Below, piece after piece: positions 9,651 to 61,909 of a stretch of 64,000 nucleotides of DNA (position 1 is the first letter of the stretch; every line of letters begins with the position of its first letter). The notes below the pieces were generated by a model. It was not told the origin of the DNA. It saw only the letters and a program-made list of their open reading frames with translations, and did no database searches. The stretch lies in NCBI RefSeq assembly GCF_003334785.1, contig NZ_QOWV01000007.1. The stretch is one strand, 5' to 3'. Made by a program: the position numbers and the translations under genes. Source of the DNA: Escherichia coli. GTDB lineage: Bacteria > Pseudomonadota > Gammaproteobacteria > Enterobacterales > Enterobacteriaceae.

Positions 9651-9815
9651 AAGAAAACTCCTTTCGAATCAGGAGGCCATTGTAACGGAATACGTGCAGT
9701 TGCGGCGCTGATATTGCAGAAATGAGTGTGGTATAGTCACCTTGCGAAACAGAGTTTATCTTCGTAGGCTTAGACTTGCATCCACGGTTAAGTCAGAGTG
9801 CTGACAGGAGGGCAT

Positions 9816-10016
9816 GTGGAAAAATATTGTGAGTTAATACGCAAGCGGTACGCGGAAATCGCCAGCGGAGACTTAGGATACGTTCCGGACGCGCTGGGCT
9901 GCGTTTTGAAAGTGCTGAATGAAATGGCTGCCGACGACGCCCTTTCTGAGGCTGTCAGGGAAAAAGCAGCATACGCTGCGGCAAACTTACTGGTGAGCGA
10001 TTATGTCAATGAATGA
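9816..10016 (+). CDS. yaeP: Small protein YaeP (UPF0253)
   Basis: 66-aa product from a GTG start preceded by AGGAGG; ORF-track entry begins 6 codons upstream at an ATG. Confidence 0.8.
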
Positions 10017-20593: not shown

Positions 20594-21381
20594 TAACGAA
20601 TCAGACCGCGCGTTGAGCGTGCAAAGAAATCGGTAAAGGCTTTCACTTCCGGATATGTTTCCGCCAGTTCAGCAATTTCCGGTTTCACTTCATCGAGCGT
20701 TTTACCGCTACGATAAATCAGCTTATACGCATTGCGGATAGCGGTAATCGCCTCACGGCTGAATCCGCGGCGCTTCAGCCCTTCGATATTGACACCGAAC
20801 GGCGTTGCGTGGTTACCCTGCGCAATGACATAAGGAGGGACGTCCTGCGCCACACCGGAGCAGCCGCCAACCATCACGTGCGCACCAATGATGCAGAACT
20901 GATGGACTGCGGTCATGCCGCCGATGATCGCGAAGTCGTCAACCGATACGTGACCCGCCAGCGTTGCGTTGTTGGCGAGAATACAGCGGTTACCTACCGT
21001 ACAATCGTGCGCAATGTGCGCGTTGATCATCAGTAAGTTGTCGCTGCCCACCTTCGTCAATCCACCGCCCTGGACTGTGCCACGATGAATGGTGACGCTT
21101 TCGCGAATGCGGTTACGATCGCCGATTTCCACACGGGTCGGTTCGCCAGCATATTTCAGATCCTGGTTAACTTCGCCGATGGAGGCGAACTGATAAATCT
21201 CATTATCGCGGCCAATTTTAGTATGACCATTCACGACAACGTGAGATTTCAGTACGGTACCCTCACCAATTTCGACATGGGGTCCAACGATACAAAAAGG
21301 ACCAATGTGTGCGTTCGCGCCAATTGACGCGCCCTCTTCCACAATGGCGGTTGGATGCACAAAGGCGGATTTATCAATCAC
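20593..21381 (-). CDS. lpxA: UDP-N-acetylglucosamine acyltransferase
   Basis: 262-aa ORF with left-handed beta-helix hexapeptide repeats. Confidence 0.96.
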
Positions 21382-21384
21382 GTA

Positions 21385-21840
21385 TCAGGCCTCCCGGCTA
21401 CGAGCACACATCATCGTTGCTTCGCAAACTACTTTACCATCGACCAGAGCAACCCCTTTAAAACGGGTCAGGCCGCGGCGCGTTTTTTCGAAAGTGACTT
21501 CCATGATCATTTGATCGCCAGGCACGACCGGGCGCTTGAAGCGCGCTTCGTCAATACCAGCGAAGTAGTACAGCTCACCCGGTTCCAGTTTTCCTACGCT
21601 TTTAAACGCCAGAATACCTGTTGCCTGTGCCATTGCTTCCAGAATCAGCACACCCGGGAAAATCGGTTTTCCAGGGAAATGGCCCTGGAAGAATGGCTCA
21701 TTGACAGAGACATTTTTTACTGCGCGCAGAAAACGACCTTCTTCAAAATCCAGCACGCGATCCACCAGTAAGAACGGGAAACGGTGCGGCAGAAGTTCTA
21801 AAATCTCTTCAATCTGCAGAGTATGAGTGTTAGTAGTCAA
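21385..21840 (-). CDS. fabZ: 3-hydroxyacyl-ACP dehydratase FabZ
   Basis: 151 aa from a TTG start (rc of window 21838-21840), preceded by AGGAAGAG; ORF-track entry extends 31 codons upstream to an ATG. Confidence 0.9.
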
Positions 21841-21944
21841 GATACTCTTCCTGTCAAAATATAAGAAACGACAATAATAACACGGCCTGCCGCAATCGTA
21901 AGAATGAGACAGGCCGTAAAGTTTGGCGAACAAAAGATGGAACG

Positions 21945-50496: not shown

Positions 50497-52479
50497 TTAA
50501 CGGCTCTGCTTTCTCAACAAATAGATAAAATATGGCGCGCCGATAAAGGTTGACAGCAGCCCCGCCGGGATCTGGAATGGAAACAGCACCATCCGCCCAC
50601 ACCAGTCAGCGAACACCAGCAGTAAACCACCCACCAGCGCCGAAATTACGATGTGTGGCATCGTCCGTCGAAAGCCCATCATCCGCGCAATATGCGGTGC
50701 CATTAAACCAACAAAACTCAACGGTCCAATAGTCATCGTCGCGGTCGCCGTCAGGCAAGCCGCTAACAGCAGCAGCGCAATTCGCGTCGGCGTCAGCGCC
50801 ATTCCTACGGCTCGGGCGGTATCACCACCCAGCGGTAAAATGGTCAGCCAGCGGCGGCACAGCGGGGTAATCGCCAGCAAAATCACCATCACAATTCCGG
50901 TGCGCCAGACCTGCGCATCGGTCGCGTTGTAGGTCGAACCGGAAATCCAGGTCAGCACTTGCGCCATTCGCGGGTCACCACTTGCCTGCAACATCATCAA
51001 AAGCATGGTGAACGCGGTGCTTAACGCCATCCCCGCCAGTAACATACGGTGTGGGGAAAATCCACCGCGGCCGGCGGCGATCATAATGATCAACAGCGTC
51101 ACCGCCGCGCCGAGACTGCCTGCAGGTAACAGCCAGCCAAAGGCATTACCCGGCACCAGAAACAGCATCAACACCACGCCAAACGCCGCGCCGGAGCTAA
51201 TCCCCAGCACTTCCGGGCTTGCCATCGGGTTTCCGGTCAGTCGCTGAATAATACAGCCCGCCACCGCCAGCATGACGCCCGCAAACAGCGCCGCCATAAT
51301 TCGCGGCCAGCGCCAGGGCATTAAATCCTCGAGCAACGCCCCGCTCGCCCACGTCCAGCCGTGCGCATCACGACCAAACGACAGCGCCACCACCACAGCC
51401 ATCAACAGCAGCACGCCGCCCGCGAGGGCAAACGCCAGCACATGTTGGCGTTCAGCCGCGACACGATCGTTGACCTTCATATCCGGCGCGCTAATGCTGC
51501 GTAAACGCGGCAACAGCCACAGTAGCAGCGGCGCACCGATCAACGCAGTGACCGAACCGGTGGACACTTCCATCCACACGCGAGTCAGCCAGAGGATGAT
51601 TTGATCGGAAAGCCAGAGGATCAGCGCACCAATCAACGACGCCAGCATCAGTCGTGGCAGCAGACGCCGCGCCCCCAGCATTTTTGCCAGCAGCGGCGCG
51701 AACAACCCGATAAAGCCGATAATCCCCACAGCGTTCACCAGCAGCGCACTGATGACAATCGCCAGCGACAGCGCCGCCAGACGCGCAAGCGACAAGGCCA
51801 GCCCGAGATTGCGCGCCACGCCATCATCAAGCCCCATCAGGGTTAACGGACGAAGTAGCAGCAACGTCAGCATCACACCGCCCAGCAGCTGCGGCCATAA
51901 ACGCTCAACGCCGCCCCAGTCGGTTTGCGTCAGCGTTCCAGTGCTCCACAGAAACATGCTTTGCAGTTGGTCATGATGGAAGATAACCAGTAACTGATTG
52001 ATTGCGCCGCAATAAAGGCTCACTACCAACCCCGCGAGAATCAGCGTTACCGGCGACAGCCGTTTCCCCCACGCGACGCCAAAGACAATTAAGCCAACAA
52101 CACAAGCCCCTGCCAGCGCAGCAAACTGGCTCGCCATCGCACCAGGGATCGCCCAGAGCGTAGTGACGGTAATCCCCAGTTGCGCGCCTGTAGCAACGCC
52201 AAGCGTCGTCGGCTCCGCCAGCGGGTTACGCAGCACTTGCTGAAACAGCACGCCCACCAGCCCCAGACCCGCGCCCACCAGCAGCGAAATCGCCAGACGC
52301 GGCAACAAGCTGTAGTGAAAAATCATCTGCTCGATGACGTCAATATCCGGCGACCAGGCAGCCTGCGCCCACTGGCTACGCGGCAGCGCCTGCGAGAAGT
52401 TCATCCAGGTGAGCGCCGTAGCGACAATCACTAACAGCGCCAGCAATAACGCCGGGAAAAGCGCAATTCGTTTACTCAC
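50497..52479 (-). CDS. fhuB: Ferric hydroxamate ABC transporter permease (duplicated-domain)
   Basis: 660-aa polytopic ORF; 4-bp overlap with fhuD. Confidence 0.96.
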   Translation of the reverse strand: MSKRIALFPALLLALLVIVATALTWMNFSQALPRSQWAQAAWSPDIDVIEQMIFHYSLLPRLAISLLVGAGLGLVGVLFQQVLRNPLAEPTTLGVATGAQLGITVTTLWAIPGAMASQFAALAGACVVGLIVFGVAWGKRLSPVTLILAGLVVSLYCGAINQLLVIFHHDQLQSMFLWSTGTLTQTDWGGVERLWPQLLGGVMLTLLLLRPLTLMGLDDGVARNLGLALSLARLAALSLAIVISALLVNAVGIIGFIGLFAPLLAKMLGARRLLPRLMLASLIGALILWLSDQIILWLTRVWMEVSTGSVTALIGAPLLLWLLPRLRSISAPDMKVNDRVAAERQHVLAFALAGGVLLLMAVVVALSFGRDAHGWTWASGALLEDLMPWRWPRIMAALFAGVMLAVAGCIIQRLTGNPMASPEVLGISSGAAFGVVLMLFLVPGNAFGWLLPAGSLGAAVTLLIIMIAAGRGGFSPHRMLLAGMALSTAFTMLLMMLQASGDPRMAQVLTWISGSTYNATDAQVWRTGIVMVILLAITPLCRRWLTILPLGGDTARAVGMALTPTRIALLLLAACLTATATMTIGPLSFVGLMAPHIARMMGFRRTMPHIVISALVGGLLLVFADWCGRMVLFPFQIPAGLLSTFIGAPYFIYLLRKQSR

Positions 52480-53369
52480 GCCTTACCTCCGATGGCGTTA
52501 TCCAGAACGCGCACAAAGTGCATTGCCGAGAGCGTCGCACCATAAAACCAGACTGCAGGTACGCGCTGAAAGCGTCCGGCGCGGACAAACGGCATGGCCT
52601 GCCACAGCGGCGTTGCCATTAGCGCATCCATGTCTTTGCTGTTGTCGTGATCAAAACAGAGCACATCAACGTCTTTATACGCCGCCAGACGATCGATACT
52701 GACGGCGGTACTGCCCCAGAAGTTGGTTTCCCCTTGCCAGGCATTTGGGATGCCGTACTCATCAAGAATTTCCTGGAACAAGCTGTTTGGACCGAAGACC
52801 AGCATATGGCGCGGATCGATAAGCGTCGTCAGCAATAACGGACGCGCACCACGCTTCACAAAGCGGGGTTTCATGCTGCGGATAAAGTCTTCATATTGCG
52901 CTAAATGCGTTTCCGCTGCGCTTTGCAGGTTAAGTAAATCTGCCATTTCCGTCAGCGATTTACGCGCCATCGCCAACGGCTGTTTGCCGTCACTGAAGTT
53001 AAATCCGCGACCCGGCGCAATACGAGCCAGCATTTCTGGTGAAGGGCCATATCCTGCCGACCAGACCATAAACGATGGTTTCATTTCGGTCAGCAGTTCA
53101 AGGTTAGGTTCTGTGCGCAAACCGACGTCGATCACTGAGTCCGGCAATGGTGGTTCGCTGACCCACAGGCGATAGTTGATGGTATCCGCCACGCCGTAAG
53201 GCACGATGCCGAGCGCCAGCAGTAATTCCACCGGCAACCACTCCAGCGCCACAATACGATTGGGATCAATAGCCGCCGCGTGGGCGGTATTCATCTGCCA
53301 TAACAACGGAGAAAGCGCCATCGCCGTTAACAGTCGACGGCGCGAAATAAGAGGTAAGCCGCTCATCAA
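52476..53369 (-). CDS. fhuD: Ferric hydroxamate periplasmic binding protein
   Basis: ORF with Tat-like signal (RRRLLTAMALSPLL); 4-bp overlap with fhuC. Confidence 0.95.
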   Translation of the reverse strand: MMSGLPLISRRRLLTAMALSPLLWQMNTAHAAAIDPNRIVALEWLPVELLLALGIVPYGVADTINYRLWVSEPPLPDSVIDVGLRTEPNLELLTEMKPSFMVWSAGYGPSPEMLARIAPGRGFNFSDGKQPLAMARKSLTEMADLLNLQSAAETHLAQYEDFIRSMKPRFVKRGARPLLLTTLIDPRHMLVFGPNSLFQEILDEYGIPNAWQGETNFWGSTAVSIDRLAAYKDVDVLCFDHDNSKDMDALMATPLWQAMPFVRAGRFQRVPAVWFYGATLSAMHFVRVLDNAIGGKA

Positions 53370-59406: not shown

Positions 59407-61836
59407 TTACGAATACTTTTTCGTCCGTCGCGTCGGTGCAGTATTTGCCGGGTCGTCCGGCCAGACATGTTTGGGATAACGCCCTTTCATCTCTTTTTGC
59501 ACCTCACGGTACGCTCCTTTCCAGAAGGCGCTCAAATCTCGTGTGATTTGTAATGGCCTTTGGGCAGGTGAAAGCAACTCCAGCACCAGCGGCACGCGCC
59601 CCTGGGCGATCGTCGGATTGGTGGCCTCGCCAAACATCTCTTGCATTCTCACCGCCAGCGCGGGCGGGTTATCTTCATGATAACGAATGGCGATCCGGCT
59701 TCCCGTCGGCACAGTGTAATGCGCAGGCAATTCACTATCCAGACGTTGCTGCATTCCCCAATCAAGTAATCCGCGTAGTGCCTGATAAATGTCGAGTGAT
59801 TTCAGGCCGCGTAGTGAATGTACGCCAGTCATATGTGGCAGCAGCCACGTTTCCAGCGCTGCCAATAAACTTTCATCATCAACCGCTGGCCAGTCATATT
59901 CCGGCAACCACTTTGCGGCGCATAACAAACGCAAGCGTAGCTGTTCCGCTTCCGCCGTCCAGTTGAGCACGCTTAAACCTTTATCACGGATGCCATTAAG
60001 CATCGCCTGATGCAACTCGTCTTCTGACGGTTTCGCCAGCGGCTGCACTTTCACCGTCAACTGACCGATTTGTAGCCGACGCCAGGCTTTCAGCGTACCT
60101 TGCGCGTCATCCCACTCCACAGTGTCAGACTGCTGTACCAGCTGCGGGCAGCGTTGTACTAACTCATCAATATCGACCAGCAGCGCCAGTAAAATCCGCG
60201 CATCCGGCGAGGCGCTGCCCTGCAATAATAACGGTGCGATCAACCATTCGTGGCGGCTTAGCGCGTCGTTGGCATCGAGCATCGCTCCCATGCCGTTTGC
60301 CAGTTGATAGCGTCCATCTTGCCCACGGCGACGAGCAATGCGATCGGCAAACGCCCCGGCAAGTAGCGGCGCGATAAGCGAACTGTCTGCCTCACCGCCA
60401 CGTACGTTTAAGCGTTTTAACAGTTGCTGACTACGTTGCTGCCAGGCTGGTTGATTGCGCGAAAACGCCACGCCCAGGTCACTATTGCCCATCCGTGGCG
60501 GCTCTTCGAGAATGGCGGCAATTTTTGCCGCGGTAGCAGCTTCGTCGTCGTTCTTCGCGCTAACCAGCATTGCCGCTAAACGCGGATCGTTACCCAGCGC
60601 TGCCATTTTTTGCCCTTGCGCACTAAGCCGTTCACCCTCCAGTGCCCCCAGCATTTGTAACAGACGTTTCGCGGCCAGTAGATTCACTACTGGCGGTTGA
60701 TCCAGCCAGCTCATCTGCGCCGGATCGCTGCATCCCCATTGCAGTAATTCCATCAGCAAACCGGAAAGATCGCTTTGTAAGATCTCCGGTTCACTTTGCG
60801 CCGCGGCGCGTTCTGCTTGTTCTTTGGCGATTAAATGCAGGCTGATACCCGGCTCCAGACGCCCGGCGCGCCCGGCACGCTGCGTCATGGATGCCTGGCT
60901 AACGCGTTGAGTAATCAGTCGCGTAAGCCCCGTGCGCGGATCAAAACGCGCCACACGCTCCTGGGCACAATCCACCACCAGACGAATACCTTCAATGGTT
61001 AAACTGGTTTCAGCAATATTGGTCGCCAGCACCACTTTACGCATCCCTTGCGGTGCCGGGAGGATCGCTTTTCGCTGATCGTTCAGCGACAACGCGCCAT
61101 ACAGCGGGCAGAGCAATACATCACTGCCGATGCGCGAAGCCAGTTGTTCCTGCACACGCTGAATTTCTCCGACGCCAGGTAAAAATAACAGTAATGATCC
61201 GCTTTCCTGACGCAGCATTTCAGCGGTGGCTACCGCAACGGCATCGTCAAAACGCTGATGCGCGGGCAGCGGTAAATAACGGCGTTCAACCGGAAACGAG
61301 CGCCCTTCTGAGATGACGACAGGCGCTTCTGGCAGCATTTGCTGCAAGCGGTCGTTGTCCAGGGTAGCCGACATAATCAGCAGTTTAAGGTCATCACGCA
61401 GACCTTGTTGCACATCGAGTAACAGCGCCAACGCCAAATCCGCCTGCAAGCTGCGCTCATGAAATTCATCAAGGATCACCAGTCCAACACCGCTCAGTTC
61501 CGGGTCACGCTGGATCATGCGCGTCAGCACGCCTTCGGTAACCACTTCCAGGCGGGTATTCGGCCCGACGCAGTTTTGCGCACGCATCCGGTAGCCAACG
61601 GTATCGCCTGGCTTTTCGTTAAGCAGCTCCGCCAGCCGTTGCGCGACGTTACGCGCCGCCAGACGACGCGGCTCCAGCAGGATAATTTTCCCGTTAATGC
61701 CGGGATGCGCCAGCAGTTGCAGCGGCAGCCAGGTTGATTTCCCGGCCCCGGTCGGCGCACTTAATAATACCTGCGGCGCACAATCGAGAGCGGTAAGTAA
61801 TTCAGGTAAGACGGCAGCAACGGGCAACGACGACAC
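59407..61836 (-). CDS. hrpB: ATP-dependent DEAH-box RNA helicase HrpB
   Basis: 809 aa from a GTG start (rc of 61834-61836); Walker A TGAGKST and DEFH; ORF-track entry extended to an upstream ATG. Confidence 0.9.
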   Translation of the reverse strand: MSSLPVAAVLPELLTALDCAPQVLLSAPTGAGKSTWLPLQLLAHPGINGKIILLEPRRLAARNVAQRLAELLNEKPGDTVGYRMRAQNCVGPNTRLEVVTEGVLTRMIQRDPELSGVGLVILDEFHERSLQADLALALLLDVQQGLRDDLKLLIMSATLDNDRLQQMLPEAPVVISEGRSFPVERRYLPLPAHQRFDDAVAVATAEMLRQESGSLLLFLPGVGEIQRVQEQLASRIGSDVLLCPLYGALSLNDQRKAILPAPQGMRKVVLATNIAETSLTIEGIRLVVDCAQERVARFDPRTGLTRLITQRVSQASMTQRAGRAGRLEPGISLHLIAKEQAERAAAQSEPEILQSDLSGLLMELLQWGCSDPAQMSWLDQPPVVNLLAAKRLLQMLGALEGERLSAQGQKMAALGNDPRLAAMLVSAKNDDEAATAAKIAAILEEPPRMGNSDLGVAFSRNQPAWQQRSQQLLKRLNVRGGEADSSLIAPLLAGAFADRIARRRGQDGRYQLANGMGAMLDANDALSRHEWLIAPLLLQGSASPDARILLALLVDIDELVQRCPQLVQQSDTVEWDDAQGTLKAWRRLQIGQLTVKVQPLAKPSEDELHQAMLNGIRDKGLSVLNWTAEAEQLRLRLLCAAKWLPEYDWPAVDDESLLAALETWLLPHMTGVHSLRGLKSLDIYQALRGLLDWGMQQRLDSELPAHYTVPTGSRIAIRYHEDNPPALAVRMQEMFGEATNPTIAQGRVPLVLELLSPAQRPLQITRDLSAFWKGAYREVQKEMKGRYPKHVWPDDPANTAPTRRTKKYS

Positions 61837-61909
61837 AAAACGCTCCAGAGGGTTAACATTCTTCGCGCCACATTGTAGCATCGCGGTAATTCATAACCGA
61901 GTGCCTCAC

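Follow-up and report, generated by a model that had tools for sequence, protein, structure and literature searches.

The non-ATG starts of fabZ, hrpB and yaeP in Escherichia coli are very probably ordinary near-cognate sites, with the fabZ TTG lying in a constrained initiation region

The TTG start of fabZ and the GTG starts of hrpB and yaeP are very probably ordinary, correctly annotated near-cognate initiation sites, and the UUG of fabZ appears to lie inside a constrained initiation region rather than to mark a gene held at low output. The first-pass annotation had proposed non-ATG starts for these three genes, and the RefSeq/PGAP annotation places them at identical coordinates. The three starts are already known, and since they stand in every current E. 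coli annotation, the start-codon finding itself adds nothing new. The window considered throughout, a 64-kb stretch of DNA, is K-12-like E. coli chromosome, colinear with positions 159941-223940 of K-12 RP437 (reverse complement), from which it differs by 20 scattered SNPs and no indels. None of these SNPs falls in fabZ or its leader; one, at window position 52482, lies 3 nt 5′ of the fhuB GTG start. GTG or TTG opens 9 of the 58 annotated coding sequences in the window. The 17% frequency of such starts in E. coli (start-codon rates taken from Hecht et al.) predicts about 9.9, and TTG starts number 2 against 1.7 expected, so that the window is ordinary in this respect. The nine genes are hrpB, fhuB, frr, cdsA, skp, fabZ, lpxA, yaeP and gmhB. 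Six of them were absent from the list of the first-pass annotation, all on the minus strand: fhuB (GTG, first base 52479), frr (GTG, first base 31069), cdsA (TTG, first base 28264), skp (GTG, first base 23459), lpxA (GTG, 21379..21381, 3 nt past the fabZ stop) and gmhB (GTG, first base 1108). Among these, cdsA, skp and lpxA share the gene cluster of fabZ, which is ordered bamA-skp-lpxD-fabZ-lpxA-lpxB-rnhB.

The fabZ coding sequence occupies 21840..21385 on the minus strand and encodes 151 amino acids from a TTG start to a TGA stop, by ORF scan as well as in RefSeq (WP_000210739.1); the gene as annotated in E. coli has the same coordinates, start codon and protein, with nothing different. Its initiation codon (21838..21840, minus) is preceded by the Shine-Dalgarno (SD) region AGGAAGAG at 21845..21852 (minus; -12..-5, with the core AGGA at -12..-9), and the minus strand at the start reads GACAGGAAGAGTATC-TTG-ACT-ACT-AAC-ACT-CAT. 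The first in-frame ATG is found only at 21633. On the 5′ side, the ATG-initiated lpxD (21945..22970, minus) stops 104 nt upstream of the fabZ start. The encoded protein is a β-hydroxyacyl-ACP dehydratase of the hot-dog fold, PF07977 being detected on all homologs, and its 151 residues match the E. coli FabZ structure PDB 6N3P over the full length (E = 6e-99). The 6N3P chain starts with M-TTNTHTLQ, and the crystal constructs 6N3P (E. coli) and 5BUX (Y. pestis) both open with M-TT(N/D)THTL, while a search of solved FabZ structures and homologs gave no match to a 31-residue N-terminal extension. The literature likewise treats TTG as the assigned fabZ start (PMC11448367).

Conservation of the fabZ start was examined with 80 orthologous loci, taken from contigs of Enterobacteriaceae, Erwiniaceae and Yersiniaceae with one genome per species. 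TTG is present at the homologous site in 81 of 81 sequences from these three families, a phylogenetically related sample that is confined to Enterobacterales, with Vibrio, Pasteurellaceae and Pseudomonas outside it. The same codon is found in Pectobacterium, in Leminorella (Budviciaceae) and in the endosymbionts Baumannia and Blochmannia. The SD region AGGAAGAG is invariant across the 81 sequences apart from a single A>C change. Further upstream, the open frame extends over anything from 5 to 61 codons without a conserved start, and about 20 Pantoea/Erwinia loci carry an in-frame TAG five codons upstream and no start codon between it and the TTG. The predicted SD:anti-SD energy is -4.3 kcal/mol at the annotated start and -0.7 kcal/mol at the upstream in-frame TTG (21931..21933, minus), which would give a 182-residue form and which we rejected, as it has no SD and its extension is not conserved. 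The fabZ SD is nevertheless modest, an energy of -4 kcal/mol being reached by about 20% of random 20-mers.

Similar observations were made for the other two genes, both of which simply start with GTG and have a better SD there than at the upstream alternative. The hrpB coding sequence (61836..59407, minus; 809 aa, RefSeq) is preceded by the SD GGAG at 61843-61846 (minus, -10..-7), with an SD:anti-SD energy of -6.2 kcal/mol compared with -2.4 kcal/mol for the upstream ATG. The GTG and GGAG-N6 are kept in Pluralibacter and Edwardsiella, and HrpB is called from M-S(S/L)LPVAA in most genera. The upstream ATG (61879..61881, minus), which would add 15 residues, was rejected because it has no SD and because its extension peptides show no relationship from one genus to another. 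In the 73-bp divergent spacer between thpR and hrpB, this ATG overlaps a conserved promoter-like string: at window positions 61853-61882 this spacer contains a conserved aTGcTACAATg, corresponding to an extended -10 element (TGnTACAAT) on the hrpB strand. On the opposite strand, a scan calls a promoter in the thpR direction, TTAACA-17-TAGCAT; the sigma-70 promoter scan upstream of hrpB called no promoter on the minus strand. As a lead drawn from the sequence, the upstream ATG may be placed 5′ of the hrpB transcription start.

The yaeP coding sequence (9816..10016, plus; 66 aa, RefSeq WP_000417058.1) follows the SD AGGAGGG at 9806-9812 (plus, -10..-4), for which the SD:anti-SD energy is -10.8 kcal/mol, compared with -2.4 kcal/mol for the upstream GTG, so that this energy favors the annotated over the upstream start in fabZ, yaeP and hrpB alike. 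Both the GTG and the AGGAGGG SD are kept in Klebsiella and Scandinavium, and in most genera YaeP proteins are called with a length of 66 aa. The upstream GTG (9798..9800, plus; 6 additional residues) was rejected, as the codon is ACG in Klebsiella and Scandinavium, which leaves no alternative start in the eight open upstream codons. We also observed that the start of rof lies within yaeP, 14 nt from its end (window 10003-10016, plus), with overlapping frames, which suggests translational coupling; the overlap is found in Klebsiella and Scandinavium as well (L090, L091).

Comparison of ortholog N-termini, as the first-pass annotation had suggested, thus showed that the annotated starts and their SDs are kept for all three genes and that the extensions are not. 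Its extension lengths of 31, 15 and 6 codons for fabZ, hrpB and yaeP were also recovered by the ORF scan, and an SD does precede each non-ATG start. Its description of the longer reading frames as starting with ATG holds only for hrpB (61881), those of fabZ and yaeP opening with TTG (21933) and GTG (9798), respectively. That longer isoforms of 182 (FabZ), 824 (HrpB) and 72 residues (YaeP) are made in addition is extremely improbable. The upstream frames are indeed open in E. coli, and several databases contain longer FabZ and HrpB proteins predicted by gene callers. However, none of the three upstream starts has an SD, and the extensions show no relationship across genera, are broken by stops or are devoid of a start codon. 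In the case of FabZ, the extension would moreover run through a spacer stem-loop of about -20 kcal/mol and appears in no solved structure. No direct N-terminal or initiation-profiling record for fabZ, hrpB or yaeP was found in TetRP (PMC4909307), TRAINSPOTTER (PMC13245402) or Ribo-RET (bioRxiv 520783). The three start assignments therefore rest on annotation and comparative evidence, which is strong. N-terminal sequencing was reportedly carried out by Mohan et al. in 1994.

Many FabZ database entries of other Enterobacterales are over-extended at the N-terminus, reaching 171-196 aa (P0002, P0005, P0007, P0011, and P0026), and one such cluster has 2370 members. Long database forms of 171-208 aa have only the peptide DRKSIL in common, which is the translated SD block, and the over-extension arises because gene callers skip the TTG. 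HrpB is likewise over-extended in Pantoea, Erwinia and Yersinia (P0285, P0294, P0308, and P0324). In Yersinia, FabZ (P0024 and P0026) additionally ends in about 25 C-terminal residues with abundant Pro, Val and Lys (...KPDVVKPDVV...), a tail that E. coli FabZ lacks.

The first-pass annotation took the TTG of fabZ to imply deliberately low translation initiation, a view that published ribosome profiling contradicts. Translation efficiency (TE), defined as ribosome density divided by mRNA abundance, was taken from Supplementary file 1 of Burkhardt et al. (2017, eLife; PMC5318159), which reports one condition in one study. In this table, fabZ (TTG) has a TE of 1.527 with a ribosome density of 1413, and it ranks about 8th in a comparison of 57 of the 1116 rows. 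Its TE equals that of skp (GTG; 1.506, density 1987) and is 4 times that of lpxD (ATG; 0.367, density 378) and 8 times that of lpxA (GTG; 0.185, density 230), bamA (ATG) standing at 0.857 with a density of 396. Other genes provide a scale: rpsB at 1.40, tsf at 1.98, ftsZ at 1.0 and cdsA (TTG) at 0.206. According to the same table, mRNA abundance is 1030 for lpxD, 925 for fabZ and 1241 for lpxA, with a span of 925-1320 from skp to lpxA. As mRNA levels are similar across this segment, FabZ is made about 4-6 times faster than LpxD and LpxA by translation. An expression-limiting start codon would be expected to give a low TE relative to operon neighbors, and no such deficit was observed for fabZ in these data. 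As for protein levels, a published model of the lipid A pathway gives no FabZ copy number, and only correlations are reported by Noga et al. (2020).

The idea that TTG acts as a brake holding an essential, dosage-sensitive FabZ deliberately low is thus unlikely, although several observations speak for it. UUG is intrinsically weaker than AUG, reporters with GUG or UUG yielding 10-100% of AUG levels (Hecht et al.), AUG is favored by genome-wide selection (Belinky et al., 2017), and the fabZ TTG is invariant in 81 of 81 sequences. The neighboring cdsA also starts with TTG, and its plasmid-borne TTG>ATG swap is lethal on induction (PMC11448367); the authors of that study, Hikage et al. (2024), suggest that fabZ may be a similar case. 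Co-regulation of FabZ and LpxC levels is furthermore described in cited text. Against this stands the fabZ TE of 1.53 (PMC5318159), which no other gene of the operon exceeds and which is in the range of rpsB and tsf, the low TTG gene there being cdsA. Photorhabdus and Arsenophonus, in addition, use ATG with the same SD block.

In these Morganellaceae, the fabZ start lies one codon downstream and is ATG (Photorhabdus, L084 382-429; Arsenophonus, L087 381-429). In Photorhabdus, an in-frame TAG has replaced the ancestral TTG and immediately precedes the ATG; the SD block and the CATACTCTG segment are kept. ATG is therefore naturally tolerated at fabZ with one extra spacer codon. Elsewhere, the strong conservation of the fabZ TTG among the aligned sequences suggests that it is probably selected. 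Start codons nearby are equally conserved, with GTG at lpxA in 81/81 and ATG at lpxD in at least 79/81 sequences, and the conservation of the fabZ TTG may therefore reflect that start codons of conserved genes change slowly in general, and not a tuning of dosage. Across genomes, a tendency of UUG starts to drift to AUG has been described, and SD conservation is stronger in non-AUG genes (Belinky et al., 2017), the latter in keeping with the frozen SD of fabZ. A fair reading of the fabZ data is that they fit a tuned and constrained start, with a fixed set-point, and do not fit a low one.

The constraint extends beyond the start codon. A near-invariant block, GACAGGAAGAGTAT(T/C)TTGAC, covers -15..+4 (21836..21855, minus) with column entropy of about 0, whereas in the 81 sequences the adjoining spacer reaches about 1 bit per column and third-codon positions farther downstream have 0.4-1.7 bits. 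Neutral sites of fabZ are saturated: four-fold sites have a median entropy of 1.19 bits, and a single one of the 58 is invariant. Farther upstream, a stem-loop of the form CGGCCUG...CAGGCCG (21883..21916, minus) ends 42 nt before the fabZ start. It was present in 85 of 87 loci, the two exceptions being Blochmannia and Baumannia, and comprises about 14 bp with a median ΔG of -21.9 kcal/mol (-19.7 in E. coli). Its base is invariant and its interior takes 67 distinct forms, all of which fold. The 3′ end of the stem-loop lies 41-43 nt from the fabZ start in 77 of the 85 loci, while the lpxD-fabZ spacer ranges from 99 to 278 nt; this fixed distance in a variable spacer indicates that the element belongs to the fabZ leader and not to the lpxD tail. 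It is followed by a U-rich tail, UGUUAUUAUUG (21872..21882, minus), with invariant or nearly invariant columns.

The tail is U-rich but interrupted, and a terminator scan flags only the inner 5-bp part of the stem-loop. A role as a strong intrinsic terminator was rejected, since mRNA abundance passes from 1030 to 925 across the spacer with no fall (PMC5318159). An Rfam scan of 21300-22300 identified no family, the only hits being chance-level snoRNA or lncRNA matches (E ≥ 0.6), and a sigma-70 promoter scan called no minus-strand promoter in the fabZ spacer. Genomic SELEX, on the other hand, reports RNA polymerase holoenzyme binding in the lpxD-fabZ spacer at K-12 position 202068 (about window 21873). 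Its intensity there is strongest for sigma-E, at 30.9 versus 4-5 for the neighboring entries listed. The listing for this spacer also includes sigma-F, sigma-H and a sigma-70 candidate, TCGCCA-15-TCTCAT, and it places an "internal promoter" between fabZ and lpxA. We found no convincing conserved promoter motif near the SELEX site in the lpxD-fabZ spacer.

A putative weak hairpin was also predicted around the start itself (21818..21848, minus), pairing AGAGUAU (-8..-2) with AUACUCU (+16..+22) and leaving UUG in the loop. For -16..+32, these 7 bp, which leave the AGGA core unpaired, make up the minimum free energy structure in E. coli (-5.5 kcal/mol) and in most relatives, and RNAalifold recovers the hairpin. 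The only invariant four-fold site of the 58, Thr7, and the next lowest, Leu8, both fall in its 3′ arm. The arms show very little variation; pairing is maintained at 98%, in a count that included six added, more divergent loci, and only one compensatory pair was observed. We consider this start-region hairpin an unproven hypothesis, its link between the arm and the invariant sites being post hoc.

These elements together raise the question of a cis-regulatory leader in which UUG, the weak hairpin and the upstream stem-loop modulate FabZ in response to temperature, IF3, sigma-E envelope stress or mRNA processing, a scheme that we regard as quite improbable. The low entropy of the Thr7 and Leu8 sites, the recurrence of the hairpin as local minimum free energy structure in most lineages, the G:C>A:U double change in Blochmannia, the near-universal stem-loop held at a fixed distance with varying interiors, and the strong sigma-E holoenzyme binding in the spacer are all consistent with it. 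The double change is, however, a single covariation event in an AT-biased endosymbiont, and 23 of 500 shuffles do as well. A 76-nt fold at the fabZ start is unremarkable (z = -0.35), Leminorella and Arsenophonus each drop one pair of the hairpin, and the coincidence of its arm with the invariant sites was spotted on the same data. The data of PMC5318159 also bear against such a switch. By DMS-seq, the fabZ start region is the least structured of its operon, with a Gini index over -20..+40 of 0.269 in vivo; in mRNA left untranslated by kasugamycin treatment the value is 0.294, so that the region is unstructured even without translation, and mRNA does not drop over the spacer. A wider formulation, namely that the lpxD-fabZ spacer is an undescribed order-wide cis-acting leader comprising the stem-loop, the U-rich tract, the SD/UUG block and the weak hairpin, possibly with a sigma-E promoter, and that it sets or switches the ratio in which FabZ is synthesized relative to LpxA and LpxD, is tentative and rather unlikely.

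In the reading that we find most likely, UUG would be one fixed part of an initiation region that is under tight constraint and gives FabZ a particular output. The 30S subunit would bind an independent initiation region within the 104-nt lpxD-fabZ spacer, guided by the modest SD (AGGA) 8 nt 5′ of UUG, which initiator fMet-tRNA would decode to begin the 151-residue enzyme. The -15..+4 region, UUG included, has been kept fixed over at least six Enterobacterales lineages, and we infer selection on FabZ dosage. High throughput would probably come from the unstructured start region and ORF and from the U-rich leader, rather than from the start codon or SD, and the upstream hairpin may contribute to fabZ translation together with that leader. 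On a transcript shared with lpxD and lpxA, fabZ has, together with skp, the highest translation efficiency of the operon.

Known systems resemble fabZ in part. One is cdsA, which, like fabZ, is essential, serves lipid synthesis and is annotated with a TTG start (Hikage et al., 2024; PMC11448367). The cdsA TTG is conserved in Gram-negatives and has been proposed to limit expression, and several back-up near-cognate starts of this gene have been studied by experiment (PMC11448367). In PMC5318159, cdsA is poorly translated (TE 0.206), unlike fabZ (1.527), which separates the two genes with respect to the idea of essential products kept low. The AUU start of infC, which encodes IF3, is the classic regulatory non-canonical start and acts in a demonstrated autoregulatory loop. 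Like the UUG of fabZ, it is a weak start codon kept by selection and discriminated by IF3; unlike in infC, no regulator or feedback is known to act on the UUG of fabZ. Standby leaders offer a further parallel, for example the 5′ hairpin of ompA and the standby model of de Smit and van Duin. They share with fabZ a stable hairpin at a fixed distance 5′ of the SD, followed by a single-stranded U-rich stretch. The fabZ hairpin, whose likeness is at most a lead, lies inside an operon, in contrast to standby leaders at a primary 5′ end.

Taken together, these results make fabZ a counter-example to the notion that a rare start codon means low expression, as it combines TTG and a modest SD with a TE in the top range of its operon. 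They also mean that many FabZ and HrpB database entries from other Enterobacterales bear spurious N-terminal extensions. The conserved leader elements might be the sole part worth follow-up. If the tentative leader reading is true, the leader would determine how hydroxymyristoyl-ACP is divided between the phospholipid and lipid A pathways, and functional spacer elements would bear on the balance of phospholipid and LPS, which is relevant to LpxC-inhibitor antibiotics.
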